DNA from: Thermodesulfovibrionales bacterium
GTDB lineage: Bacteria; Nitrospirota; Thermodesulfovibrionia; Thermodesulfovibrionales; Dissulfurispiraceae
Assembly (NCBI GenBank): GCA_030017995.1
Contig: JASEGS010000002.1
Coordinates: forward strand, 21,463 to 85,462
Direction of reading: 5' to 3'
DNA length: 64,000 nucleotides
Shown here piece after piece: positions 3,830 to 48,659 of this stretch (its first letter is position 1; each line of letters begins with the position of its first letter). A program made the translations under genes and the position numbers. The notes beneath the pieces are model-generated. The model searched no databases. It saw only the letters and a program-made list of their open reading frames with translations, and had not been told where the DNA came from.

Positions 3830-4361
3830 TTTGGGTTTCGATTAAGGAAATCGCCTCCTTCAGCGATACCTTGTCAGTATCTATTGTAACCTCTGGATTT
3901 ATTGGCTCTTCATATGGGGCATGTATGCCGGGCACAGGCCATCCGGCCTTTCCTTTTTTGTAAATACCTTTTGGAGCGGCATGGGTTTCCTTGCGGGATG
4001 CCTCCCTTTCTGCGCAGATAGCAACAGGGCATTTTAGGTAGACTTCAAGAAAATTCGGTATAATCTCCCTCGCAAGTTCTCTCCATCGTCTCATATTCCC
4101 TGTGGCATCAATAATCACATCATGTCCGAGACTTGAGAGCGTCTTTGCTGTATACACGATTGCCCTATAGACCATCTCCCTTTCTGATTCTGAGTATGTG
4201 GGCTCTGGTGTGACAACCTTCCTAAGTTCATCCATTCTCAGGATGATAAAGTCAGGCAGGCGACTTTTAATCCCATCTGCCACAGTGCTTTTGCCGCTGC
4301 CGGGTAGACCTGTTATCCAGAGCACAATGCCATTCATAACAAAACGTCTATTTCCCCTCAA
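3813..4361 (-). CDS. P-loop kinase, adenylylsulfate kinase-like
   Basis: 182 aa. Walker [10 protein letters not shown] near the N-terminus. Size and layout match the APS-kinase family. Start may be the internal MNGIVLW. The 3' end overlaps uvrB convergently by 17 nt. Confidence 0.6.
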
Positions 4362-4647
4362 TCATCAGATTGCTCGTTACTGATCTTACTCCCCTCACTT
4401 GTTTTGAAAGGTCTATAAGCCTTTGCTCTGCCTTCTTGTTCGGCACAACGCCTGTTAAAGTTACATACCCCCTGAAGGTATCAACATTGATTTTGAGATA
4501 CTTCAAGTCAGGATCTTTTATTATCAATAGATTAATCTCACTTGTTATTGAAGAATCATCAATTGTCTCGCCGGCTGTCCTTCCGGTTACAGACGCACAG
4601 CCTGAAACAAATACCACTAAAATAACAAAGAACACTGCCCTCTTCAT
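4348..4647 (-). CDS. BON domain lipoprotein
   Basis: 99 aa. Signal peptide with lipobox VSGC. BON-like pattern VDTFRGYVTLTGVVPN...VRGVRSV. Confidence 0.7.
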   Translation of the reverse strand: MKRAVFFVILVVFVSGCASVTGRTAGETIDDSSITSEINLLIIKDPDLKYLKINVDTFRGYVTLTGVVPNKKAEQRLIDLSKQVRGVRSVTSNLMIEGK

Positions 4648-4735
4648 TTTCTACCTCCTTGAGTGGTTGGTTTATAACCAGATTATACCAGATTATATTA
4701 TGTTGTATATAAGTTTTCCATAATCCGTAATCAAG

Positions 4736-4895
4736 CAAAGCAGGCACGGCTTCAAAGTCTTTATCAATGCGATAAGATTATTAAATGCCTGTTTATGCTG
4801 CTGAATGCAAAGGGTGATATTGAAATTGCCTCTAATGGCGGAGGGATCGGCGCTAAGGTATCGCTGATAAAGCCTTTTCACCCATGCCTGCTTTG
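4736..4895 (+). repeat. structured repeat element, family X, copy 1 (degenerate outer stem)
   Basis: Core 4767..4864 aligns with the cores at 9395..9527 and 47613..47711. The 31-nt flanking arms pair at 26 of 31 positions. Confidence 0.8.
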
Positions 4896-4992
4896 TTTCT
4901 GTAAATGTTTGGCTACGGATTATGGGCAATAACCGCTTTGCATATTTACTATTTTGTTGTGCTGTCTATTCACACATGTCGCAGAATAAACA

Positions 4993-5127
4993 CATCAACA
5001 GAGCAGAAGAGCAGAAGAGCAATAGTTTTCAAGTCCCAATGGCATAAAATAAATAATATCTTATTTTTCAGGTTGTTATCTGTTAACTTCCGCTCTACTG
5101 ATCTTCTGCTCTATTGCTCTGTTGATG
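4993..5127. repeat. octad-phased palindromic element (GAGCAGAA family)
   Basis: Left arm CATCAACA GAGCAGAA GAGCAGAA GAGCAATA (4993..5025). Right arm TTCCGCTC TACTGATC TTCTGCTC TATTGCTC TGTTGATG (5088..5127) is the complement form of the same 8-mers. Spacer about 60 nt. Confidence 0.85.
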
Positions 5128-5191
5128 TCTGGCACATTTGTTGCTTTCTCACATAAAGTAAAATTGTGTTCTTTGAAAGGTGATTTTTTTC

Positions 5192-5221: not shown

Positions 5222-5343
5222 TTCTGCCAATACGTGAAAAGGGGGTGATGCTGGGGAATAAGTCAAGAGTCAGGAATCAAAAGTCAGAAGTGTGAGAGGG
5301 AATCCGCCTTTGGCGGAAAAAAAATACTGAACCAAACCAAAAG

Positions 5344-5423
5344 GCAGTGCAGAAGAGCAAAAGCGCAGAAGTTTTAAAAAACAAGTTTTACTACTGATCT
5401 TCTGCTCTACAAGCTTCTGCTCT
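5344..5423. repeat. octad-phased palindromic element (GAGCAGAA family) in the porin leader
   Basis: Left arm GCAGTGCAGAAGAGCAAAAGCGCAGAAG. Right arm CTACTGATCTTCTGCTCTACAAGCTTCTGCTCT is its approximate complement. Confidence 0.8.
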
Positions 5424-5454
5424 AAATAATGGTTTGGGAAGTGAAGGAGACAAA

Positions 5455-6681
5455 ATGAAAAGATTTTTAGCAGTAGTTTTAGGCGCAATGCTTGTATTAG
5501 GCTTTGCAGTCAGTGCATTTGCTCAGGATGGTTTAAAGCTGAGCGGCTCACTAACAATGAGGGGCTGGTATTTAGATACCCTGGACAACAATTCTAATGA
5601 TGGAAATGGTGATGATGCTTACTATGACACACAGTTAAGGCTGATGTTTGATGCAACAGTCGGCAAGGCAAAGGCAGTGATTGAGCTGCAGAATGGTGCA
5701 GGCGGTTCATCAAAATGGGGCAGAAACACAGATTTCCAGGCTGCTGAAAATATGAACCTCAGCGTTAAACAGGCATATATCGCATTTCCTGTAGCAGGAC
5801 TCAACATCAGCGCTGGTCATCAGCTTTTGTCACTGGGTGTAAAGTCCTTCTTTGATGCATCAAAGGACGGCGCAAAGGCGATTCTTGTTACATATCCTTT
5901 TGATAAGAAGAATATAGTGGGCGTAGGCACAATAAAGGCACTTGATACTGATGTTCTTGCATCAACTGCAATTGCTGAAGACAAAGATATTTATTTTGGT
6001 CTTGCAAGCTTTGATCTCAACGGACATACACTCGGACTGAATGCAGCGGCTGTGATAGATAATGCGGTTGCTAAAAGCCACCTCTACAACTGGGCACTTA
6101 CACTTAACGGTAAGCTTGGCGCTGGTTTAGGTTACACACTCGCAGCAGATATCCAGACCGGCAAACAAGATGGAGCAAATGATAACAAAGGCTACCATGT
6201 AAGAGGCGCATTGAGCTATCAGGCAACACCTGAGCTTAACCTCAGCGCAGCGAGCATTTACTTCAGCGGTGAGGAGAGCGGCGCTGATGTAAAGAAATTT
6301 GTAACATTCCTTGAAGACACAAACTATGCAACATGGGTATTCGGTTACATGAACAGGGGCTTTGGTGCTACAATCGGAACAGGAACTCCTGCACCTGGCG
6401 GCTTCTGGTTTAACAGGCTTGCAGCAGACTATAAGGCGACAAAAGACCTTTCAGTTGGCCTTGCTTATATCAACATAAGAGGAACATATGATAGTTCAGT
6501 TAACGCAAGCAAGGAAGTAGGCAATGAAATTGACTTTACAATTGCTTACAATATATCAAAAGGTCTTACCTACAATGTTATAGGCGGTTTCCTGATGCCT
6601 GGTAAGGCATATGAAAATGCCAATCCTCTCAGGGATGATACAGCTATTGGTATCAGGCACGCACTTACACTCAGCTTCTAA
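5455..6681 (+). CDS. outer-membrane porin-like beta-barrel protein
   Basis: ATG at 5455 preceded by AAGGAG (5444..5449). Signal peptide MKRFLAVVLGAMLVLGFAVSAFA. Gly/Ala/Thr-rich alternating strands. C-terminal ...ALTLSF with terminal Phe. Confidence 0.7.
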   Translation: MKRFLAVVLGAMLVLGFAVSAFAQDGLKLSGSLTMRGWYLDTLDNNSNDGNGDDAYYDTQLRLMFDATVGKAKAVIELQNGAGGSSKWGRNTDFQAAENMNLSVKQAYIAFPVAGLNISAGHQLLSLGVKSFFDASKDGAKAILVTYPFDKKNIVGVGTIKALDTDVLASTAIAEDKDIYFGLASFDLNGHTLGLNAAAVIDNAVAKSHLYNWALTLNGKLGAGLGYTLAADIQTGKQDGANDNKGYHVRGALSYQATPELNLSAASIYFSGEESGADVKKFVTFLEDTNYATWVFGYMNRGFGATIGTGTPAPGGFWFNRLAADYKATKDLSVGLAYINIRGTYDSSVNASKEVGNEIDFTIAYNISKGLTYNVIGGFLMPGKAYENANPLRDDTAIGIRHALTLSF

Positions 6682-6684
6682 TTA

Positions 6685-6737
6685 GCTCGGAAGAGCAGAA
6701 GAGCGGAAGCTCAGAAGTTGAGAGGATAAGAAGTTCA
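6685..6737. repeat. half element of the GAGCAGAA octad family
   Basis: GCTCGGAA GAGCAGAA GAGCGGAA GCTCAGAA directly after the porin stop codon. No complementary arm follows. Confidence 0.7.
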
Positions 6738-8716: not shown

Positions 8717-9346
8717 ATGCTGATTAAAAACATAGTCGTAGGCCCATTAGAGGTTAACTGTTTTATCATTGCTGATGAAATATCTAAAAAGGCTGTAGTG
8801 ATAGATCCAGGAGATGAACCTGACAGAATCATGGATATTATCAGAGATAAAGGATTAGGGGTGGAGCATATTATCTGCACTCACGGACACTTTGACCATG
8901 TGGGAGCTGTGAGCGATTTGAAAAAAGAGACAGGGGCAAAGTTCTTAATGCATAGGGATGAGCTTGAGATATACCGTGCTGCAAAGGATATGGCGGCATT
9001 CTGGGGATTTGAAATGGATGATATTATAGAGCCTGATGATTTTGTTAAAGAAGGAGATGTGATTGAAGTTGGCAGTTTAAGCTTTGAAGTCTTCCACACG
9101 CCAGGACACAGTCCCGGAGGGATATGTCTCTATGGCGAGGATATTGTCATCACAGGCGACACCCTTTTTGCAGGCTCTGTTGGAAGGACAGATTTTTACG
9201 GCGGTGATATGAACAAACTTAAAGAGTCATTTAAGAGGCTCATGTCATTATCTGAAAAGACAAGGGTTTTGTCCGGACATGGTCCTGAAACGACAATTGG
9301 TTATGAGAAAAAGGAGAACATGTTCTCAGAAGAATTCATGATGTGA
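8717..9346 (+). CDS. MBL-fold metallo-hydrolase (glyoxalase II-like)
   Basis: 209 aa. THGHFDH metal motif and HTPGHSPG. Confidence 0.85.
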   Translation: MLIKNIVVGPLEVNCFIIADEISKKAVVIDPGDEPDRIMDIIRDKGLGVEHIICTHGHFDHVGAVSDLKKETGAKFLMHRDELEIYRAAKDMAAFWGFEMDDIIEPDDFVKEGDVIEVGSLSFEVFHTPGHSPGGICLYGEDIVITGDTLFAGSVGRTDFYGGDMNKLKESFKRLMSLSEKTRVLSGHGPETTIGYEKKENMFSEEFMM

Positions 9347-9360
9347 CTATAATCCCAATC

Positions 9361-9561
9361 ATGGATGGCAGGTATAGCTGAAAAGCCTTTAGGAATGCGA
9401 TAAGATTATTAGATGCCTGTTTATATTGTTTAATATAAAGGTTATATTTGAAGTTGCCCCTTAAACCCCGTTAGAAAGTTTCTTTCTAACGGGGTAAACG
9501 TCTGAGGGTTCGGCGCTAAGGTATCGCTCCTAAAGGCTTTTCAGCTATACCTGCCATCCAT
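9361..9561 (+). repeat. structured repeat element, family X, copy 2 (perfect 34-bp outer stem, extra internal hairpin)
   Basis: ATGGATGGCAGGTATAGCTGAAAAGCCTTTAGGA (9361..9394) is the exact reverse complement of 9528..9561. Core 9395..9527. Additional 14-bp hairpin at 9465..9495. Confidence 0.85.
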
Positions 9562-9577
9562 ATTGAACTTAGGATGA

Positions 9578-9605
9578 ATGACTGCGGATTAAGGTGTGTT
9601 ATAAT
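9578..9605 (+). promoter_or_regulatory. promoter candidate for the cdaA operon (extended -10)
   Basis: ATGACT (9578..9583), 16-nt spacer, TGtTATAAT (9597..9605). Confidence 0.4.
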
Positions 9606-12461: not shown

Positions 12462-14885
12462 ATGTCCTATTTCATTTTTTTCATTTGCGGCGCAGCGCTT
12501 TTTTACATTCATAGATACTTTCCATTTACAAGCCTTTCTATATTCATGGTAATTGCAGGCCTGCATTTATTTTTCAGCACAAAGAAAAAGTTTGCTCGCA
12601 GTTCATTTCTTGGCGCTGCCTCAATGGTGATTATTGCCTTCCTTGGGTTCTATTATGCCAATCTTTGGCATAAACCACAGATCCCTCCCTCAGAGATTGC
12701 CGGCAGGAGTGTAATAGTCGAGGGCATTGCAAGATCAGAAGCAGTTCAGTTAACCAATGGCGTTTTCTCGCAATTGATTGAAGTTAAAAAAGCAGAGGAT
12801 GAACATGGGAATATAATAAATTTAAAAGAGATCAAATTATTCAGCAATGCCCGGTTTAGCAATAACAGAATATTTATGATAAAGGCAAAGATCCCTGCTG
12901 AATCTTATTTCCTGAATCCATGGGGTGTAAGAAATCGTGTTCATGGTTATGTCTATGAGACAATTGAGACAGGCAGTAGAGACTTGGGATTTTTCGAGGA
13001 AACAAGGCTCAAACTCAATAGATTTTTAAAGGATAATTTTACAAGTGAATCTTCCGCATTTCTCATGTCCATTATAACAGGGGAGAGAGGTTTGCTAAAG
13101 AAGGAGACGAGAGACGCATTTAACTCAACAGGGCTTGCCCATATACTTAGCATATCAGGAGCTCACTTTGGATTGTTATTCTTTATCGTGTTCAAGTTTT
13201 TTAGAGTTTTGGTGAAACTGCTTCCGTATAATCTTCTTGCAAGATTAACGCTCTATATTACGCCGTCTCAGATAGCCGCAGTTCTGTCTATCCCGGTAAT
13301 GATCGGCTATCTCGGCATTTCAGATATGAGTTTTCCAGCCATCAGGTCATTTATCATGATAACCCTCTTTCTCTTTGGTCTCGTGATCCAAAGAAGAGGT
13401 TTTTGGCTGAATACATTGCTCTTTGCAGCAGTCGTGATAATTTTGATCCAGCCTGATTCGATCCTCGACCTCTCATTCCAGCTTTCTTTTATTGCTGTAT
13501 TGTGCATTGGACTGACAGCAGAACAGAAGGGCGGAAGAGCAGAAGAGCAGCAGTTTAAAAAAGAGGGAGCAACTCCATATGTCGAAGCTACCGGTCTACT
13601 GCTCTACTGGTCTGCTGCTCTAAAGTTCTGCTCTTCTGCGCTGAAAATTTCCCTCGCTGCAACCATTGGCACAGCGCCAATTGTGGCTTATTATTTTCAT
13701 TATTTCTCCCTTATATCGCCTCTTGCAAATCTTATTATTACGCCTGTTATTGGATTCATTATCCTCCCTGCAGCGCTTATCTCTTCATTTATCTTTCTTG
13801 TATCCGGCATCTTTCCTGCTCATGCAATTATAGACAAGCTCACCGCATTTGTTATCTCAGCAATAAAATATATTGCACAGTGGGGTTTTACAGAAGTGAA
13901 GATAGCAGCCTTTCCTCTCATATTGCTTGTGATGTTTTATGCCGGGATATTGTTTTATGTGTTCATAAAGAACAGGCAGGAACAGTCCAAAGCGTTATCT
14001 GTTATTTTGACGATAACCGTTTCTGTCATCCCATTTATCGTCTATGCAGTTATAAGGTTTTCTGAGCACAAGGGTATACAGATTACCTATCTTGATGTAG
14101 GGCAGGGAGATTCTGCTGTGGTCGAATTGTCTGATAAAAGGATACTTGTAGTGGATACAGGCAGAAACGGTTTTCAGACAGGCGAGTTTTTGCGATATAG
14201 AGGCATTAAAGAGATCGACGCTGTCGTTTTATCTCATGGTCAATCAGACCATGCAGGCGGCATAGAACAGCTTATAAAGAACTTTAAGGTCAATGAGATA
14301 TGGGATAACGGCAGGCAGGTTTATCCAGAGGGTTTTTTAAAAGGCATTCGGCACAGGGTATTACAGCGGGGAGATGTTGTGAAAGGCAATGGATATAGAA
14401 TTGTATTTGTCCATCCATATGATGGATTTTACACGCTATATTCGGGTAACAATGATGAAAACAACGAATGTCTTGTATTCAAGATTCAGGGGATTAAAAA
14501 TACTTTTCTCTTTACAGGGGACATTGAGGAAGAGGCTGAAAGCGATATTGCACATTTAGACGAGAAGATTAAGAGCAGTGTTTTAAAGGTTCCGCACCAC
14601 GGAAGCCGGACATCCACATCAGAAATATTTATGTATGCAGTTTCTCCTGAGATCGCGGTAATAAGCTCAGGGAGGAGAAATTCATACGGCCATCCTCATG
14701 AAGAGACGCTTGATAAATTTGGCAATATCCGTGTGCTGAGGACAGATCTGGATGGAGCGATAAATATAAGAGAACTATCCGATGGAAGCCTTAAAATCCG
14801 GACATGGAAGGACTTTCAGATAACAGAGGTAAAAGGGTTGAAACAAGAATTCAAGAATTTAGAAAAACTATTTCTTGTATGGTAG
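12462..14885 (+). CDS. comEC: DNA internalization-related competence protein ComEC/Rec2, with an in-frame repeat insertion
   Basis: 807 aa. Polytopic competence domain plus C-terminal MBL domain (YLDVGQGDS, LSHGQSDHAGG, VPHHGS). Confidence 0.85.
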   Translation: MSYFIFFICGAALFYIHRYFPFTSLSIFMVIAGLHLFFSTKKKFARSSFLGAASMVIIAFLGFYYANLWHKPQIPPSEIAGRSVIVEGIARSEAVQLTNGVFSQLIEVKKAEDEHGNIINLKEIKLFSNARFSNNRIFMIKAKIPAESYFLNPWGVRNRVHGYVYETIETGSRDLGFFEETRLKLNRFLKDNFTSESSAFLMSIITGERGLLKKETRDAFNSTGLAHILSISGAHFGLLFFIVFKFFRVLVKLLPYNLLARLTLYITPSQIAAVLSIPVMIGYLGISDMSFPAIRSFIMITLFLFGLVIQRRGFWLNTLLFAAVVIILIQPDSILDLSFQLSFIAVLCIGLTAEQKGGRAEEQQFKKEGATPYVEATGLLLYWSAALKFCSSALKISLAATIGTAPIVAYYFHYFSLISPLANLIITPVIGFIILPAALISSFIFLVSGIFPAHAIIDKLTAFVISAIKYIAQWGFTEVKIAAFPLILLVMFYAGILFYVFIKNRQEQSKALSVILTITVSVIPFIVYAVIRFSEHKGIQITYLDVGQGDSAVVELSDKRILVVDTGRNGFQTGEFLRYRGIKEIDAVVLSHGQSDHAGGIEQLIKNFKVNEIWDNGRQVYPEGFLKGIRHRVLQRGDVVKGNGYRIVFVHPYDGFYTLYSGNNDENNECLVFKIQGIKNTFLFTGDIEEEAESDIAHLDEKIKSSVLKVPHHGSRTSTSEIFMYAVSPEIAVISSGRRNSYGHPHEETLDKFGNIRVLRTDLDGAINIRELSDGSLKIRTWKDFQITEVKGLKQEFKNLEKLFLVW
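13516..13643. repeat. palindromic GAGCAGAA-family element inside comEC
   Basis: Left arm CAGCAGAACAGAAGGGCGGAAGAGCAGAAGAGCAGCAG. Right arm CTACTGCTCTACTGGTCTGCTGCTCTAAAGTTCTGCTCTTCTGCGCTG. Read through in frame as AEQKGGRAEEQQFKKEGATPYVEATGLLLYWSAALKFCSSAL. Confidence 0.8.
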
Positions 14886-21197: not shown

Positions 21198-21313
<116 letters not shown>

Positions 21314-21322
21314 TTAAAATAG

Positions 21323-35961: not shown

Positions 35962-36096
35962 TATAAAATTATTGTTTCAGATAAGCTATTAACAATAAAG
36001 GGGAGTAGCTGGACAGCGGACATCGTCAGCACATCTGCAATAGGCAGGTCGGTGCCTCTGGTTAGTGAGTAATAAGACTAAACTAACTAATAAGCA

Positions 36097-36165
36097 AGAC
36101 CTTTACCGCAAAGAGTATTTATTATAAAATAAATGATAAGTATTCTTTGCGGTAAAGGTCTTTTG
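36097..36165 (+). terminator. long-stem terminator-like hairpin after yidC
   Basis: AGACCTTTACCGCAAAGAGTAT ... ATTCTTTGCGGTAAAGGTCT followed by TTTTG. Confidence 0.55.
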
Positions 36166-36255
36166 TATTTAGTTTTTCGATTTATGATTTTAGAATTTTA
36201 AAATCCGCGACATTGTTAGCCATTCGGTATAGGCAGAAGAAGGATGATATAATAT

Positions 36256-42850: not shown

Positions 42851-45568
42851 ATGAATAAAATGCAATGGCATAAGAAAAAAAATGAAGATGTAATTGAACA
42901 ACTACAGTCATCACTTGGGGGACTTTCCCCGGCGGAGGCTCGGAAGCGTCTTTCCGAATACGGTCCCAACGAGCTAATGGAGAAAAAAAAGAAGACTCCG
43001 CTCATGATGTTCCTTGACCAGTTCAAGGACTTCATGATCCTCGTTCTTATCGCTGCTGCAATCGTGTCAGGAATTATCGGCGAGCCCTCGGATACCATAG
43101 CGATTGTTGTAATAGTTGTTCTTAATGCCATCATAGGCTTTGTTCAAGAATACAGGGCTGAAAAGGCAATGGTCGCACTCAAACAAATGGCTGCGCCGTT
43201 TGCAACAGTAATAAGGGACGGGATGCCTGCAAATATCCCTGCATCAGCGCTTGTCCCCGGAGATATAGTAATCCTTGATGCCGGAAATGTCGTGCCTGCG
43301 GATATGAGGCTGACAGAGACCGCCATGTTAAAGATAGAGGAAGCTGCACTTACCGGCGAGTCCGTGCCTGTTGAAAAGCATACAAAGGCATTGCATGATG
43401 AGCATTTGCCGCTTGGCGATAGAAAGAACATGGCATATAAAGGCACATTTACAACTTATGGCCGCGGTATGGGAGTTGTTACGGCAACAGGTATGGATAC
43501 GGAGCTTGGCAAGATTGCAGCAATGCTCCAGGAGGAAGAAGAGGTAAAAATACCGCTTCAGAAAAGGCTTGCCAAATTCGGGCAGAAACTTGCAATTGCC
43601 GTCCTTGCAATATGCGCTATTGTCTTCGGCATCGGCATTTTAAGAGGAGAAGCGCCTTTATTGATGCTCCTTACAGCCATTTCCCTTGCTGTGGCGGCAA
43701 TACCAGAGGCGCTTCCGGCAGTTGTAACCATTTCACTCGCCCTCGGAGCGAAAAAGATGGTGAAGCAGAATGCCTTGATAAGAAAACTTCCGGCAGTAGA
43801 AACCCTCGGCTCCGTTACCTATATCTGTTCGGATAAAACAGGAACCCTTACTTTGAACAAAATGACGGTGGAAGAGATTTATGTGGATGGAAAATTAGTA
43901 AGAGCAGAAGAGCAAAAGAGCGGAAGATCAGAAGCAACAGATTTTAGAACTTCTGCACTTCTGCGCTTCCCGACTTCTGCGCTTTTTACTGCCCTTGCTT
44001 TGAGCAATGACGCGCAGGTGGATGCCTCAGGCAATGTAATAGGCGACCCAACTGAAATTGCATTGTACAACATTGCAAGGGATAAAGGTTTTGATAAGAG
44101 GGAACTGGAAAAGAAATTCCCGAGGGTTGCGGAAATTCCATTCGATTCGGACAGGAAATGTATGACGACAATACATGGAGCAGAAGAGCAGAAGAGCAGA
44201 AGTGCGGAAGGAAAGACTTCCGAACTTCCGAGCTTCCGCTCTAATTTCGTTTCTTTTACAAAAGGTGCGATAGAAGTATTGATTGACAAGTCGGATTATA
44301 TCCTGATATCTGATGGACTGAAGGCAGTGGATAAGGCAGAAATCCACAAAGCAAGCGAAAGAATGGCTACTGATGGGTTGAGGGTACTGGGCATTGCAAT
44401 GAGGAGATGGGACAAACTGCCTGATGACATGTCTCTTGAGAATGTAGAGACAGGACTCACTATTTTAGGTCTTGTGGGGATGATGGATCCTCCGAGGGAA
44501 GAGGCTAAAGAGGCGGTTGCGCTTTGCAAGACCGCGGGCATAAGACCTGTGATGATAACCGGAGACCATCCTATTACCGCAAAGACAATAGCCGAAAGGC
44601 TCGGAATAATAGAGGACGATTCAAGACATATAATCACCGGCAGGGAATTGGAAAGACTGCCATTGGAAGAATTTGAAACGCGGGTCGAGCATATACGCGT
44701 ATATGCCCGCGTCGCTCCCGAACAGAAATTAAAAATAATAAAGGCCCTTCAGGACAGGGGGCAGTTCGTCGCGATGACAGGAGACGGGGTGAATGACGCC
44801 CCTGCATTAAAAAGGGCGGATATAGGGATTGCTATGGGGATTACGGGAACGGATCTATCCAAAGAAGCTTCCGATATGATCCTGCTCGATGACAATTTCG
44901 CGACCATTGTAAAGGCGGTGAAAGAGGGAAGGAAGATATACGACAACATAAGAAAGTTCATAAAATATCTCCTCACGACGAATTCAGGCGAGATATGGAC
45001 GCTTTTCTTAGCTCCGCTTGCAGGGCTGCCGATCCCGCTTCTGCCGATCCATATACTCTGGATAAACCTCATGACAGACGGCCTTCCCGCCCTCGCACTA
45101 TCCGTAGAGCCGGCAGAAGGAGATGTAATGAGAAGGCAGCCGCGTCATCCGCAGGAGAGCATATTCGCGGGAGGTTTGGGCCTTCATGCGATATGGGTAG
45201 GGTTGCTGATGGCAGGCATTGTTTTGTTTGTTCAGGCTTGGAGCATTAAGACAGGAAACGCCCATTGGCAGACAATGGTATTTACTGTGCTTTGCCTGAC
45301 TCAGCTCGGACATGTGCTTGCAATAAGGTCGGAGAGCGAGTCGCTGTTTAAGATCGGATTGTTTTCAAATAATGCCCTTCTCGGAGCGGTTGTTTTAAGT
45401 TTTGCATTCCAGATAGCAACTATTTATGCACCTGTCCTGAATCCAATATTTAAGACAGAGCCATTAACTTTGAACGAACTGATATTTACACTCGGCCTGT
45501 CATCTGTGGTATTCTTTGCAGTCGAGATTGAAAAGTTTGTCAGGAGGAAGAAATGGCAGATGTCATAA
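42851..45568 (+). CDS. P-type ATPase, type IIA (Ca2+/cation-transporting, SERCA/PMCA-like), with two in-frame repeat insertions
   Basis: DKTGTLT phosphorylation site, [26 protein letters not shown]. Start uncertain (42851 or 42860; tracked ORF starts at 42794). Confidence 0.93.
43902..43981. repeat. octad-phased palindrome inside the ATPase gene (insertion 1)
   Basis: GAGCAGAA GAGCAAAA GAGCGGAA GATCAGAA GCAACAGA TTTTAGAA CTTCTGCA CTTCTGCG CTTCCCGA CTTCTGCG. Translated as [28 protein letters not shown]. Confidence 0.9.
44178..44241. repeat. octad-phased palindrome inside the ATPase gene (insertion 2)
   Basis: GAGCAGAA x3, GTGCGGAA, GGAAAGAC, TTCCGAAC, TTCCGAGC, TTCCGCTC. Translated as [21 protein letters not shown]. 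Confidence 0.9.
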
Positions 45569-47311: not shown

Positions 47312-47515
47312 ATGGCTTTTGAAGGAAAGGTGAAGTGGTTTAATGAGTCCAAGGGTTTTGGTTTTATCCAGCGTGATAACGGACAGGATGTCTTTGTTCA
47401 TTATTTTTCAATCCAGGGAGATGGGTTCAAGACATTAGCTGAAGGTCAGAGAGTTCAATTTGATGTAGTTGAAGGCGAACGCGGACCTAAGGCTACAAAT
47501 GTAGTAAAAATCTAA
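47312..47515 (+). CDS. csp: cold-shock protein (CspA family)
   Basis: 67 aa. [12 protein letters not shown] (RNP1), VFVHYFSI (RNP2). Confidence 0.96.
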
Positions 47516-47545: not shown

Positions 47546-47579
47546 AATATCTTCTCTAAATCAAATTTTCAGATCCAGC

Positions 47580-47744
47580 GGCAAGACTGGCATGGCTTCA
47601 AATCCTCTATCAATGCGATAGGATTATAAGATGCCTGTTTATGCTGTTTAATGTAAATGTGATACTGAAAGTGCCCTTAAACAGCGGGAGGGTTCGGCTC
47701 TGAGGTATCGCTGATAGAGGATTTGAAGCCATGCCAGTCTTGCC
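47580..47744 (+). repeat. structured repeat element, family X, copy 3 (perfect 33-bp outer stem)
   Basis: GGCAAGACTGGCATGGCTTCAAATCCTCTATCA (47580..47612) is the exact reverse complement of 47712..47744. Core 47613..47711. Confidence 0.85.
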
Positions 47745-47813
47745 TTTATAAATCTGATTGTGGAACTGTCTAAGTTGGAATTTTTCGGTTATATCCTGTA
47801 TCTTAGATAGATT

Positions 47814-48659
47814 ATGCGCTTGCCGGAATGGATTAAAGTAAAGGCGTCAGGTATGCATGAGACGAAGACCCTCTTGCGGAGCCGCCGTCTTTCGACGGTC
47901 TGCGAGGAGGCACGGTGTCCGAACAAGGGCTTTTGTTTCTCAAAGCCCACCGCCACATTCATGATACTCGGGGACTGCTGCACAAGGGACTGCGGGTTCT
48001 GCTCTGTGAGCTCTGGCGTTCCCTCATGCACTGATGCTGACGAGCCTGAAAGGGTTGCAGAGGCAGCAGAGGAATTGGGTTTGAAATATGTCGTTATAAC
48101 ATCGGTTACGAGGGACGACTTGCCTGACGGAGGCGCATCACAGTTTGCCGAAACCATAATGGCCGTAAAAAAGAGGCTTCCTCATTCAAAGGTTGAGGTG
48201 CTCACGCCTGACTTTGAGGGAGATATAGGCGCCCTGCAAATTGTTCTAAATGCGGAGCCCGATGTGTTCAATCACAATATGGAGACGGTGAAAAGGCTTT
48301 ACAGTAGGGTAAGGCCGCAGGCCGATTATGAGCGTTCTTTATTGGTTCTTCAAAATGCCCGAAGACTCGCGCCCGATATCAAGACAAAGTCAGGATTTAT
48401 GCTCGGCCTCGGCGAAGGCATGGATGAGGTATTGGAATTATTAAAGGATTTAAGGAGCGCGGGCTGTTGCTTTCTTACAATAGGCCAGTATCTTAGGCCT
48501 ACAAAAAACAATCTGCCTGTTGTAGAATATATAAAACCTGAAGTATTTGAAGAGATTAAAGAAAATGCCCTCGCCATGGGATTTGAATTCGTTGCGTCAG
48601 GGCCGCTGGTCAGAAGCTCTATGAATGCAGAAGAAATGTACTGGAGGAGCGATGTTTGA
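47814..48659 (+). CDS. lipA: lipoyl synthase
   Basis: 281 aa. CEEARCPN auxiliary cluster motif and the radical-SAM CTRDCGFC motif. Confidence 0.95.

Follow-up and report, generated by a model that had tools for sequence, protein, structure and literature searches.

The three copies of a structured element found in the window, which here denotes the whole 64,000-nt stretch of DNA analysed, are members of a previously undescribed family of hairpin-forming intergenic repeats of about 210 nt in the Thermodesulfovibrionales (Nitrospirota). The units are dispersed, multi-copy and exclusively intergenic, with neither coding capacity nor a linked enzyme gene, and they vary at the same spacer (present, absent, or replaced by another family), flip in place, decay to remnants, and form tandem dimers. 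The reading preferred here, at a rough probability of 0.45, is that the copies represent family A within a superfamily of Thermodesulfovibrionales/Nitrospirota repeats that are intergenic, non-autonomous, and hairpin-forming, and whose units would act as a single-stranded hairpin, either RNA or single-stranded DNA (ssDNA). With the same reserve, the superfamily may be regarded as analogous to REPINs, BIMEs, and ERIC.

Architecture of the Copies in the Window

The original prediction described three intergenic copies in the same orientation, and all of them were found at the predicted positions on the plus strand. The shared core of about 100 nt was likewise recovered in copies 1-3 through a 5' core motif (4767-4796, 9395-9424, and 47613-47642) and a 3' core motif (4841-4864, 9504-9527, and 47688-47711), each with 3 matches in the window vs 0.00 expected in shuffles. 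The stems described as perfect, with 34 bp in copy 2 and 33 bp in copy 3, do have arms that are 100% complementary, and an inverted-repeat search located the imperfect stem of copy 1 in arms of 34 nt at 4733-4766/4865-4898 (82% complementary). The extents first assigned to the copies were too short, since an outer helix and a loop on the 3' side also belong to the unit.

The full unit of about 210 nt is nearly all self-complementary. It has an outer helix of CATAATC-type heptamers (P0; CCATAATCCGTAATC/GATTACGGATTATGG), the long arms with a loop on one side only, and GCGATA/TATCGC, a short inner helix that closes the family-specific core of about 100 nt. The features of the three copies are collected in Table 1, where the plus orientation of copy 1 serves as the family convention, the minus strand forming the better hairpin. 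The motif of the 5' half of P0 recurs and covaries in five related loci (L022, L038, L050, L116, and L131), and a remnant of the same helix is retained in copy 2, where TAATCC (9350-9355) pairs with GGATTA (9586-9591).

Table 1. Positions of the three copies and their parts in the window
Feature	Position	Strand	Basis or remark
Copy 1, full unit (family A)	4718-4925	+	P0, 5' arm, core, 3' arm, 3'-side loop, second P0 half
Copy 1, outer helix P0, 5' half, CCATAATCCGTAATCAAG	4718-4735	+	pairs with 4910-4925 in folds of both strands
Copy 1, 5' arm, CAAAGCAGGCACGGCTTCAAAGTCTTTATCA	4736-4766	+	inverted repeat, 82% complementary
Copy 1, conserved core, ATGCGATAAGATTATTAAATGCCTGTTTAT to GAGGGATCGGCGCTAAGGTATCGC	4767-4864	+	core motifs
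Copy 1, 3' arm, TGATAAAGCCTTTTCACCCATGCCTGCTTTG	4865-4895	+	inverted repeat
Copy 1, one-sided internal loop, TTTCTGTAAATGTTTGG	4896-4912	+	conserved in several family-A copies
Copy 1, outer helix P0, 3' half, CTACGGATTATGG	4913-4925	+	pairs with the 5' half
Copy 2, full unit	~9348-9593	+	begins 2 nt past the stop codon of the metallo-beta-lactamase gene
Copy 2, 5' arm, perfect, 3'-arm-type TGAAAAGCC sequence	9361-9394	+	34 nt, 100%; appears converted
Copy 2, core including nested insertion	9395-9527	+	core motifs
Copy 2, nested 14-bp hairpin, TTT loop	9465-9495	+	flanking direct repeat TAAAC at 9462-9466 and 9495-9499
Copy 2, 3' arm, perfect	9528-9561	+	34 nt, 100% with the 5' arm
Copy 3, full unit, between csp terminator and lipA	~47569-47757	+	P0 degenerate: TCAGAT/ATCTGA
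Copy 3, 5' arm, perfect	47580-47612	+	33 nt, 100%
Copy 3, core	47613-47711	+	core motifs
Copy 3, 3' arm, perfect, complement of 5'-arm-type TTCAAA	47712-47744	+	33 nt, 100%; appears converted

Copy 1 is flanked by a BON-domain gene (minus strand) and a 415-aa ORF (plus strand), copy 2 by the metallo-beta-lactamase gene and cdaA (both plus), and copy 3 by csp and lipA (both plus). The copies are 4.6 and 38 kb apart and lie among housekeeping genes. Exact look-ups of two proteins encoded in the window returned no record. No Pfam matches were obtained for the ORFs overlapping copy 1, and a conserved ORF was not found, the "ORFs" of family B being in inconsistent frames.

The additional 14-bp hairpin of copy 2, which had been regarded as a variable stem of an RNA family, is present where it was predicted, but the direct repeat TAAAC at its bounds gives it the look of a nested insertion rather than of a variable RNA stem. 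The possibility that this hairpin constitutes a separate repeat family was rejected, as it is unique in the window and in 198 loci.

Stem Covariation, Strand Asymmetry, and a Proposed Single-Stranded Hairpin

The proposal that the stem is kept by paired changes holds across the 18 copies of family A, in which 17-19 of the 35 pairs of the long stem have changed on both sides. The share of paired cells is 94.1% for the minus strand and 91.2% for the plus strand, and values as high were obtained in 0 of 500 shuffles. The pairing of GCGATA with TATCGC that had been proposed within the core also covaries, but the rest of the core is almost without covariation, and other core helices that were considered exhibited no consistent covariation. 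Mean pairwise identity within the family is 63-65% for the outer arms, which covary, 83% for the inner arms, and 81% for the core. The conservation of the core thus matches that of the inner arms, is higher than that of flanking coding DNA, and exceeds what would be expected of a REPIN spacer, which suggests that the core itself may have a function.

The two strands differ in the quality of the hairpin. For the fold of positions 4714-4938 (copy 1), the z-score is -5.24 (minus strand) and -3.53 (plus strand); RNAalifold gave energies of -42.3 (minus strand) and -39.2 (plus strand). Typical members keep fixed imperfections in the stem. On the minus strand of the window these are tandem G·A/A·G and G·U pairs, whereas the plus strand shows them as A·C and pyrimidine mismatches; in each of four families, the TC/TC columns correspond to tandem G·A when read on the minus strand. 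Among 25 elements of these four families, 66 arm transition mismatches read as A·C on the plus and as G·U on the minus strand, vs 9 of the opposite kind. Should the mismatches go back to a small number of master copies shaped by a local mutational bias, this comparison would have about 5 families (p ~0.06), not about 15 positions, as its independent units. Family A alone has 38 G·U vs 15 A·C on the minus strand. An exception is the inner helix, in which wobbles favour the plus strand (pair 45/173, with 5 G·U). At copies 2 and 3, the minus strand, where the imperfections can be accommodated as G·U and G·A, is antisense to both neighbours.

Asymmetry of the G·U type and tandem G·A are classic features of RNA, and a structured RNA, transcribed from the minus strand or embedded in read-through transcripts, with the hairpin acting at the RNA level, is the first alternative to be weighed. 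In one variant, the element would block nucleases or be a site of processing and thereby determine how stable neighbouring mRNA is, a role described for ERIC, REP, and Correia elements; in another, it would be a protein-binding small RNA with the core as its functional part. Besides the mismatch pattern and the better minus-strand fold, the high conservation of the core, an orthologous copy whose conservation exceeds that of its flanks, and a promoter-like minus-strand site to the right of copy 2 (9637-9608) speak for such an RNA. However, G·T and tandem G·A are the most stable mismatches in DNA hairpins too, so that the asymmetry cannot tell RNA and ssDNA apart. Moreover, the antisense position of the favoured strand at copies 2 and 3 counts against an RNA, neither a promoter nor a terminator is conserved within the unit, and gene orientation is mixed and, if anything, contrary to prediction. 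The near lack of covariation in the core, the occurrence of at least five unrelated cores on the same arms, and the in-place inversion of an element without its loss are further points against it, and a structured RNA in either variant is therefore considered unlikely. The original prediction had been unable to name an RNA family for the element, and the whole window searched at the gathering threshold of Rfam yielded 5S rRNA only. With copies 1 and 2 at E<=10, Rfam 15 returned only chance matches, such as MIR2670 with 28 bits vs a threshold of 117, a match owed to the long stem.

Several known motifs were rejected on inspection: a K-turn, as the tandem G·A occurs without a 3-nt bulge; a sigma-54 promoter, as the spacing in the arm GGCACGG..GC is wrong; and an IHF site, as TATCAATGCGATA falls short of the consensus.

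Under the preferred reading of a non-autonomous hairpin element, the unit would act, and be copied or retained, as a hairpin of one strand, namely the minus strand of the window, on which a conserved tandem G·A/A·G stands beside an invariant AAAGCC/GGCUUU helix and G·U wobbles lie at fixed distances from this helix. These imperfections could be what an unlinked protein acting in trans recognises, such as a single-copy HUH/RAYT-like enzyme, and the complementarity of the arms may be maintained partly by selection and partly by arm-to-arm conversion. A single-stranded mechanism with a trans-acting enzyme would also account for the missing target-site duplications, none of which were seen at either candidate boundary in the flanks of the 18 copies. 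Across 46 loci, no transposase was found repeatedly in the neighbourhood of the elements, as would be expected in any case if its gene were single-copy, and a search for a linked enzyme by clustering the 1044 ORFs of these 46 loci produced only widespread paralogue families (PAS/sigma-54 activators, ABC transporters) and element-derived pseudo-ORFs.

A more far-reaching idea, which is regarded as doubtful, is that the arms, as a long helix with the invariant tandem G·A beside AAAGCC/GGCUUU and fixed G·U positions, may be a strand-specific scaffold for one host protein and the interchangeable cores of about 100 nt functional cargos. Each core is conserved across genera, and better so than the coding DNA around it. 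If this were true, the elements would be vertically inherited, host-retained modular RNAs or ssDNA hairpins, or regulatory cassettes that can be flipped, and not selfish junk, and such a scaffold-cargo system would form a new functional class beyond REP-like repeats.

Distribution, Turnover, and Perfect Arms

In a scan of 185,579 species genomes, true homologues of the core were confined to Nitrospirota; 73 genome matches to a 21-mer were mostly due to chance. Family A comprises 18 non-redundant copies in Nitrospirota MAGs and metagenomes, all located between ORFs, with 3 copies in the 64 kb of the window and at least 4 in MAG GWB2_47_37. At least four further families have the same arms (..GGCA.GG.TTCAAAGCCTTTA / TAAAGGCTTTTCA..) with unrelated cores, the inner arms (..TCAAAGCCTTTA / TAAAGGCTTTTCA..) being common to at least five families. 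Tandem dimers within one outer helix occur, and one decayed remnant was found. The element originally described in three copies is thus one family of dispersed mosaic repeats with shared arms and interchangeable cores, rather than an RNA gene with three copies.

Comparison of orthologous spacers demonstrates turnover. The spacer between csp and lipA contains family A in the window and two other families in reverse orientation in L076; it is empty in L074, where it is not alignable. Upstream of cdaA, the window carries family A on the plus strand and L201 a different core in reverse orientation, L203 has a reversed remnant interrupted by an IS256-like element, L199 has no element and a different upstream gene, and L202 has an assembly gap of 100 N at this site. 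A clean empty site with alignable flanks was not obtained among L074, L202, and L199, a recent transposition event was not found among the related loci, and it is only the distribution of the element that suggests that it may be mobile. In an orthologous pair (L021/L127), an element of 164 nt is inverted in place within a divergent promoter region and is 89% identical, the collinear flanks being 76-78% identical. With respect to gene context, 12 spacers are divergent vs 3 convergent, 28 downstream genes lie on the same strand vs 10 that do not, and co-orientation of the plus strand with the flanking genes is weak (14 vs 6).

A classical MITE, that is, a deletion derivative of an insertion sequence with a DDE transposase, mobilised as double-stranded DNA through its terminal inverted repeats, would fit the size, the intergenic location, and the long inverted arms of the unit, as well as its presence or absence at orthologous spacers, and shared ends with different interiors are the usual pattern of MITEs. 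A known MITE with terminal inverted repeats and target-site duplications had been named in the original prediction as the case that would overturn it, but target-site duplications are lacking in all 18 copies. The inner arm and core are the best conserved parts and the outer arm the least, whereas terminal repeats bound by a transposase have the opposite gradient, and the arms covary rather than stay conserved. The strand-asymmetric mismatches also argue against a MITE, and in about 1.6 Mb of related loci neither a longer element with the same ends and a transposase nor a pair of unpaired arms flanking a gene was found. The plasmid and phage collections contained no matches, the full unit giving no blastn match in either, and a MITE origin is accordingly judged improbable. 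Searches with the arm pattern in IMG/VR gave 16 matches, which were rejected as coding or chance (arm identity <=22/34). A search for solo outer helices (P0) with 3 mismatches was too noisy.

It is similarly improbable that the element works as an invertible DNA switch (inverton) or mobile promoter, in which the arms would be recombination sites flipping a promoter-bearing core and frequent flipping would homogenise the arms. Such a switch would agree with the L021/L127 inversion in situ, which lies in a divergent promoter region, with the differing orientation among related genomes at the cdaA spacer, with the preference for spacers upstream of genes described above, and with the perfect arms of copies 2 and 3. 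A sigma-70-like motif on the minus strand, TAAACA-16-AATAAT/TATAAT, is also present in copies 2 and 3 (9-10/12), together with a weaker plus-strand motif recognised by eye, TTTATA-17-GATAYT, for which a scan flagged copy 2 only (TTTATA-17-TATATT). These promoter-like motifs are weak, however, with none comparable by eye in family B, and the 20 promoter-like sites in the region are not far above the 12.9 +/- 3.3 of shuffles. A recombinase was not found among the 10 ORFs scanned beside the copies, and none recurs near elements in the related loci. In addition, the arms of most members are mismatched, including a fixed non-complementary dinucleotide, the strand asymmetry is left unaccounted for, and the arms with the outer helix span 45-50 bp, far longer than known inverton repeats.

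Of about 45 elements, copies 2 and 3 of the window alone have perfect arms; about 40 other members retain the same conserved mismatches between the arms. In copy 2 both arms are of the 3' type, and in copy 3 both are of the 5' type. The arm differences between these copies had been interpreted as compensatory substitutions, but a one-step arm-to-arm conversion fits better than many independent ones, and the perfect stems are probably best explained by conversion of a whole arm, with copies 2 and 3 converted in opposite directions. Complete conversion of an arm renders the stem perfect, so that private arm changes look compensated. The route could be template switching at a quasipalindrome or heteroduplex repair during inversion, the mechanism of conversion having been documented for imperfect inverted repeats (PMC7202029). 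That the perfect stems are an artefact of metagenome assembly, in which near-identical inverted arms collapsed and nothing is special about them, is very improbable. In its favour, the source is a MAG (its CdaA is 100% identical to a Thermodesulfovibrionales MAG protein, P0121), perfect arms occur in this assembly alone, and one relative has an assembly gap at exactly such a repeat, but a collapse in the middle of a 33-nt arm requires k-mers below about 15-20, as longer ones reach the unique flank or core, copies 2 and 3 were perfected in opposite directions with different private changes, and copy 1 of the same assembly has kept the canonical mismatches.

Significance and Comparison with Known Repeat Systems

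Hairpin-forming intergenic repeats such as REP/REPIN, ERIC, and BIME are well studied in Proteobacteria; for Nitrospirota, no description of such repeats was found in the literature and there is no Rfam model. The family touches on the open question of whether these repeats persist as selfish replicators or through a benefit to the host, on which the sharing of arms across unrelated cores, the strand-specific mismatches, and an inverted ortholog better conserved than its flanks all bear. In practical terms, repeats of this kind break MAG assemblies and can mimic covarying RNA genes, and caution is advisable as arm-to-arm conversion in palindromes yields apparent compensatory substitutions without selection on an RNA.

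The feature that defines REPINs, which are REP doublets folding into hairpins, is their association with RAYTs (Y1 HUH transposases, PF01797), the TnpA-REP tyrosine transposases that mobilise them. REPINs combine inverted conserved ends with a spacer, form a hairpin in ssDNA or mRNA, frequently exhibit compensatory changes, and occur in tandem clusters (PMC3116915). The elements described here resemble REPINs and the BIME mosaics of E. coli in that inverted conserved end segments enclose a spacer, the whole unit forms a long hairpin, and compensatory changes occur, and likewise in being multi-copy, strictly extragenic, free of target-site duplications, arranged in tandem or mosaic clusters, and persistent over long vertical descent (PMC3116915). 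Differences from REPINs include the length of the units (about 210 nt vs about 70-110 nt), a core of about 100 nt that is as conserved as the ends and wholly different between families, the lack of a GTAG-type 5' motif, and an extra outer helix of CATAATC heptamers. It is the inner arm, not the end, that is most conserved here, so the REPIN pattern of ends more conserved than the spacer does not apply (core 0.81, inner arms 0.83, outer arms 0.63-0.65).

ERIC, or IRU, sequences are imperfect palindromes of about 127 bp in enterobacteria, which are intergenic, have no known transposase, and are conserved in sequence across genera. They have reportedly been treated by Hulton in 1991, Wilson and Sharp in 2006, and De Gregorio in 2005. 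ERIC variants bear internal insertions at fixed points, and a constraint at the level of an RNA hairpin has reportedly been proposed. The resemblance, in architecture only, concerns long intergenic palindromes that cross genera and have variants with internal insertions. The present elements differ in phylum, in the several unrelated cores carried on one arm type, in the documented in-situ inversion, and in imperfections favouring the strand that is often antisense to neighbouring genes.

Bacterial MITEs that have effects on RNA, namely the Correia/NEMIS elements of Neisseria, the pneumococcal RUP and BOX elements, and the QMITEs of Coxiella, possess defined terminal inverted repeats, target-site duplications (TA for Correia), and parent IS families, none of which was found for the elements described here. 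Size, intergenic site, and inverted ends are alike, and promoter-like sequences and RNase-sensitive hairpins are possible in both. Invertons, such as fimS and the Mpi-dependent promoters of Bacteroides, likewise have inverted repeats around a short, AT-rich segment located upstream of genes, multiple copies with common repeats and core, and an orientation that differs between related genomes. In contrast to invertons, the repeats here are 33-50 bp, usually mismatched, and strand-asymmetric, an invertase was not found, and the promoter motif is weak and not general. Finally, although the R''/R' boxes (RYYYAAC / GTTRRRY) at the hairpin base, the cassette array, and the nearby integrase of integron attC sites have no equivalent here, attC and the attP(+) of the CTX phage are similar to these elements in that stem structure is conserved more than sequence, the hairpin is strand-specific, the terminal structure is variable, and conserved unpaired or mismatched positions mark the active strand.

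Extent and relatives of the repeat

Three intergenic copies of a hairpin repeat are found in the window where the original prediction had placed them, with each of the two core motifs occurring exactly three times, always on the + strand (shuffled sequences lead one to expect 0.00 occurrences). A repeat finder recovered the perfect arms claimed for copies 2 and 3 and, in addition, imperfect arms for copy 1. The intergenic setting was borne out for every copy, and a Pfam scan of overlapping ORFs, confined to those of copy 1, gave no match.

Each bacterial and archaeal species was represented by one genome in a scan with a 21-mer of the core, and matches that also carry the remaining core and the arms were counted as true homologues. 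These were found only in Nitrospirota MAGs (loci L001, L005, L017, L021, L022, L037, L038, L050, L069, and L071); the remaining 21-mer matches, without the rest of the core and the arms, were due to chance. The window itself belongs to a Thermodesulfovibrionales MAG, its CdaA being 100% identical to protein P0121, and the relatives of its LipA include Dissulfurispira. A metagenome scan by the inner-arm pattern only (AAAGCCTTTA ... TAAAGGCUUU-type, 95-125 nt apart) yielded further copies with the core of the window copies (family A, 18 non-redundant copies by nhmmer) and at least four other families (B, C, D, E, and a type represented by loci L115/L157), in which the same arms enclose unrelated cores roughly 100 nt long. 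All that families A, B, and L115/L157 share is the inner closing helix with its borders, GCGATRRGA ... AAGGTATCGC. The window copies are one family within a dispersed repeat superfamily.

The extent originally assigned to the unit was too short. The flanks of many copies contain an additional inverted pair, CCATAATCCGTAATCAAG ... CTACGGATTATGG, forming an outer helix that covaries (AGAATCCGCAG/CTGCGGATT in L116, AATCCACCATCA/TGATGGTG in L131), and a one-sided loop, TTCTGTAAATGYTTGG, is conserved 3' of the arms. Because both belong to the unit, copy 1 takes the longer extent listed in the table, over which it folds as an end-to-end rod on either strand. Tandem dimers enclosed by one outer-helix pair, their members 17-20 nt apart, recur at unrelated loci. 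In L038, the outer-helix pair ACCATAATTCC ... GCGGATTATGGT holds no more than 40 nt that resemble a family-E arm, the remnant of a decayed element.

The window also contains a second dispersed repeat family, in which the octamer GAGCAGAA and its complement TTCTGCTC are repeated in short tandem arrays that form inverted pairs; one such array stands some 60 nt rightward of copy 1. High-GC metagenome loci (L084, L087, L107, L117, L125, and L188) have similar inverted arrays, with AAAGCCTTTAACCGC arms closing CGCAGAG units.

Coordinates of the elements and accompanying features (window positions unless another locus is named)
Feature	Position	Description
Copy 1	4718-4925	arms 4733-4766/4865-4898, 34 nt, 82% complementary; between BON-domain gene 4348-4647 (-) and 415-aa ORF 5434-6681 (+)
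Copy 2	~9348-9593	arms 9361-9394/9528-9561, 34 nt, 100% complementary; between metallo-beta-lactamase gene 8717-9346 (+) and cdaA 9650-10432 (+)
Copy 3	~47569-47757	arms 47580-47612/47712-47744, 33 nt, 100% complementary; between csp 47312-47515 (+) and lipA 47814-48659 (+)
Extra hairpin of copy 2	9465-9495	14 bp; in 33-nt insertion within 9462-9499
Octamer arrays	4986-5128, 5333-5409, 6679-6725, 13507-13622, 43888-44243	repeat finder D1, D4, I2, I5, I6
Inverted repeat	36089-36169	37 nt, 84% complementary, 7-nt loop; unrelated to hairpin family
5S rRNA gene	21198-21314 (+)	103 bits (Rfam)
Tandem dimers	L076:3184-3544; L094:8783-9137; L150:5692-6048; L155:2646-3008; L136:2380-2860	family E + family C
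Decayed element	L038:5017-5075	
csp-lipA spacer, window		family A, forward
csp-lipA spacer, L074		closest relative (LipA 90% identical); element absent, spacer 141 bp
csp-lipA spacer, L076/L078		LipA 81% identical; two other families, reversed
Cassette upstream of csp	L074:6-2503	FGE-sulfatase-domain gene, bAvd, reverse transcriptase, plus HicAB
Spacer upstream of cdaA, window		family A, forward
Spacer upstream of cdaA, L201		different core, reversed
Spacer upstream of cdaA, L203	85-1490	reversed remnant, cut by IS256-family transposase gene (PF00872)
Spacer upstream of cdaA, L199		no element
Spacer upstream of cdaA, L202	1624-1723	100-N assembly gap; CdaA identical to that of the L203 assembly
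Inverted orthologous element	L021:314-484; L127:11475-11649	orthologous divergent spacer of two related genomes

Pairing of the stem and asymmetry between its strands

The stem was tested over 35 pairs (the arms and the inner helix GCGATA/TATCGC, three never-pairing columns left out) in 18 copies, strands being named relative to the orientation of the window copies. On the minus strand, standard pairs occupied 94.1% of cells versus 85.2% in shuffles, 17 pairs had changed on both sides, with a covariation score of 0.332 versus 0.160, and 0 of 500 shuffles reached these values; slid controls paired at 33-42%. The plus strand was 91.2% paired, with 19 pairs changed on both sides and a score of 0.295. 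Given these figures and the mean pairwise identities (outer arms 0.63-0.65, inner arms 0.83, core 0.81), the outer arms are variable yet complementary, while the inner arms and the core, which has almost no covariation, are conserved in sequence. Judged from these alignments, maintenance of the hairpin across the family is real.

The way in which the two arms differ is conserved in almost every member outside the window. A pair of neighboring columns is TC on the top strand in each arm, giving a tandem pyrimidine mismatch on the plus strand and tandem G·A/A·G on the minus strand; family A has an extra R·G mismatch one pair from the tandem, and transition mismatches keep constant positions relative to it, about 5-8 pairs away. 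In 25 non-redundant elements of four families, oriented by the TC/GA columns, 66 transition mismatches, which are G·U on the minus strand, read A·C/C·A in the window-plus orientation and only 9, mostly at the frayed outer end, were G·U on the plus strand, counts that conservatively represent about five independent families, since mismatches are inherited within families. In family A alone, G·U outnumbers A·C by 38 to 15 on the minus strand, and at pair 20/198 U·G is commonest (11 of 18 copies). Folding likewise favors the minus strand, both in alifold energy (-42.3 vs -39.2) and in single-sequence z-score (-5.24 vs -3.53); against the general trend, the wobble of the innermost pair favors the plus strand. 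The asymmetry follows the element's own orientation, its genomic orientation being variable, and points to an element that would act as a single strand. It does not separate RNA from single-stranded DNA, since in DNA, too, no mismatches are more stable than G·T and tandem G·A.

A function at the RNA level, as ERIC-like control of mRNA stability or as a small RNA, would fit such single-stranded action and is the likeliest of the alternatives, doubtful as it is. Among co-directional spacers, 14 have their genes on the element's plus strand and 6 on its minus strand (crude ORF calls, which also gave 12 divergent and 3 convergent spacers), a weak bias opposite to the prediction for a co-transcribed minus-strand RNA. 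The original prediction could name no RNA family, and in Rfam the element indeed matches none: at the gathering threshold the whole window returned the 5S rRNA alone, and copies 1 and 2, scanned permissively, gave only sub-threshold matches driven by the long stem. On present evidence, this is not a new RNA class.

Turnover, inversion and perfect arms

The content of the csp-lipA and cdaA spacers varies among relatives, their flanks being too diverged for clean empty sites to be defined, and the gap at one cdaA spacer suggests that these repeats break assemblies. The cassette upstream of csp in L074 resembles a diversity-generating retroelement; its position, with that of HicAB, is occupied in the window by MazG. 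The one unambiguous inversion among the orthologous sites compared is that between L021 and L127, where flanks are collinear and 76-78% identical and the 164-nt element aligns reversed at 89% identity, better conserved than its partly coding flanks. The outer loop motif has kept its place and the breakpoints are within the outer arms, so the inner element was flipped in situ.

Flipping is also what an invertible promoter cassette would do, and the core has a minus-strand sigma-70-like motif (TAAACA-16-AATAAT/TATAAT) flagged in copies 2 and 3. That motif is weak, its plus-strand counterpart is weaker and flagged in copy 2 only, family B has no comparable motif by eye, and promoter-like and terminator-like scans found nothing conserved as part of the unit; such a cassette is improbable. 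A classical DDE MITE, to which dispersed copies with inverted arms might be assigned, is just as hard to credit: neither candidate boundary of the elements has a target-site duplication, and no transposase or recombinase recurs near elements in 46 loci or occurs among 10 ORFs scanned beside the window copies. Plasmid and phage records contained no match, and viral contigs no true element.

Among about 45 elements, only copies 2 and 3 have perfect arms. Copy 2 has 3'-arm-type sequence on both arms (TGAAAAGCC / GGCTTTTCA), and copy 3 has 5'-arm-type sequence on both (TTCAAATCC / GGATTTGAA), with about five private substitutions, each on both arms. The economical explanation would be a single copying event from one arm to the other, running in opposite directions in copies 2 and 3. 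Either of two processes may have done this: intrastrand template switching at a quasipalindrome, by which imperfect inverted repeats are documented to mutate into perfect ones (PMC7202029), or heteroduplex repair in the course of arm-arm recombination, a process that can also invert the element. Because single-event copying would account for the perfect stems, the earlier argument from compensatory substitution to selection on the hairpin is unsafe for copies 2 and 3, and it is the family-wide maintenance of the hairpin that stands. An assembly artefact seems very unlikely as the cause, the arm differences being too far from one another and from unique flanks to collapse at normal k-mer sizes. 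The extra hairpin of copy 2 is present as described; flanked by the 5-nt direct repeat TAAAC and without a second occurrence in the window or in 198 other loci, it looks like a small nested insertion with an apparent target duplication, rather than the variable RNA stem that had been proposed.

Nature of the element and comparison with known repeats

The feature is real and was correctly observed. Our preferred reading, tentatively held at a probability of about 45%, takes the feature to be an intergenic repeat of the REPIN/BIME/ERIC kind, non-autonomous and hairpin-forming, that would be propagated or retained via a strand-specific single-stranded hairpin. The conserved inner arm with its tandem G·A might serve as a recognition feature for an unlinked protein, and on this reading the element is long-lived, able to flip in place, and subject to arm-to-arm conversion. 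Repeats of this kind are known in bacteria and undescribed in Nitrospirota, and their general nature would not surprise a specialist; the notable features are the arms common to unrelated cores, the strand-specific conserved mismatches, and the inverted yet strongly conserved orthologous copy.

REPINs consist of inverted conserved ends with a spacer, form hairpins in single-stranded DNA or mRNA, commonly show compensatory changes, and occur in tandem clusters (PMC3116915), features that the Nitrospirota element matches in outline. REPINs are, however, defined by their association with RAYTs, whereas the likeness here is one of architecture, and conservation of the core goes far beyond what a mere spacer would show; the element is therefore not filed as a REPIN. 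In its mosaic, birth-and-death pattern, the superfamily resembles BIME/REP sequences.
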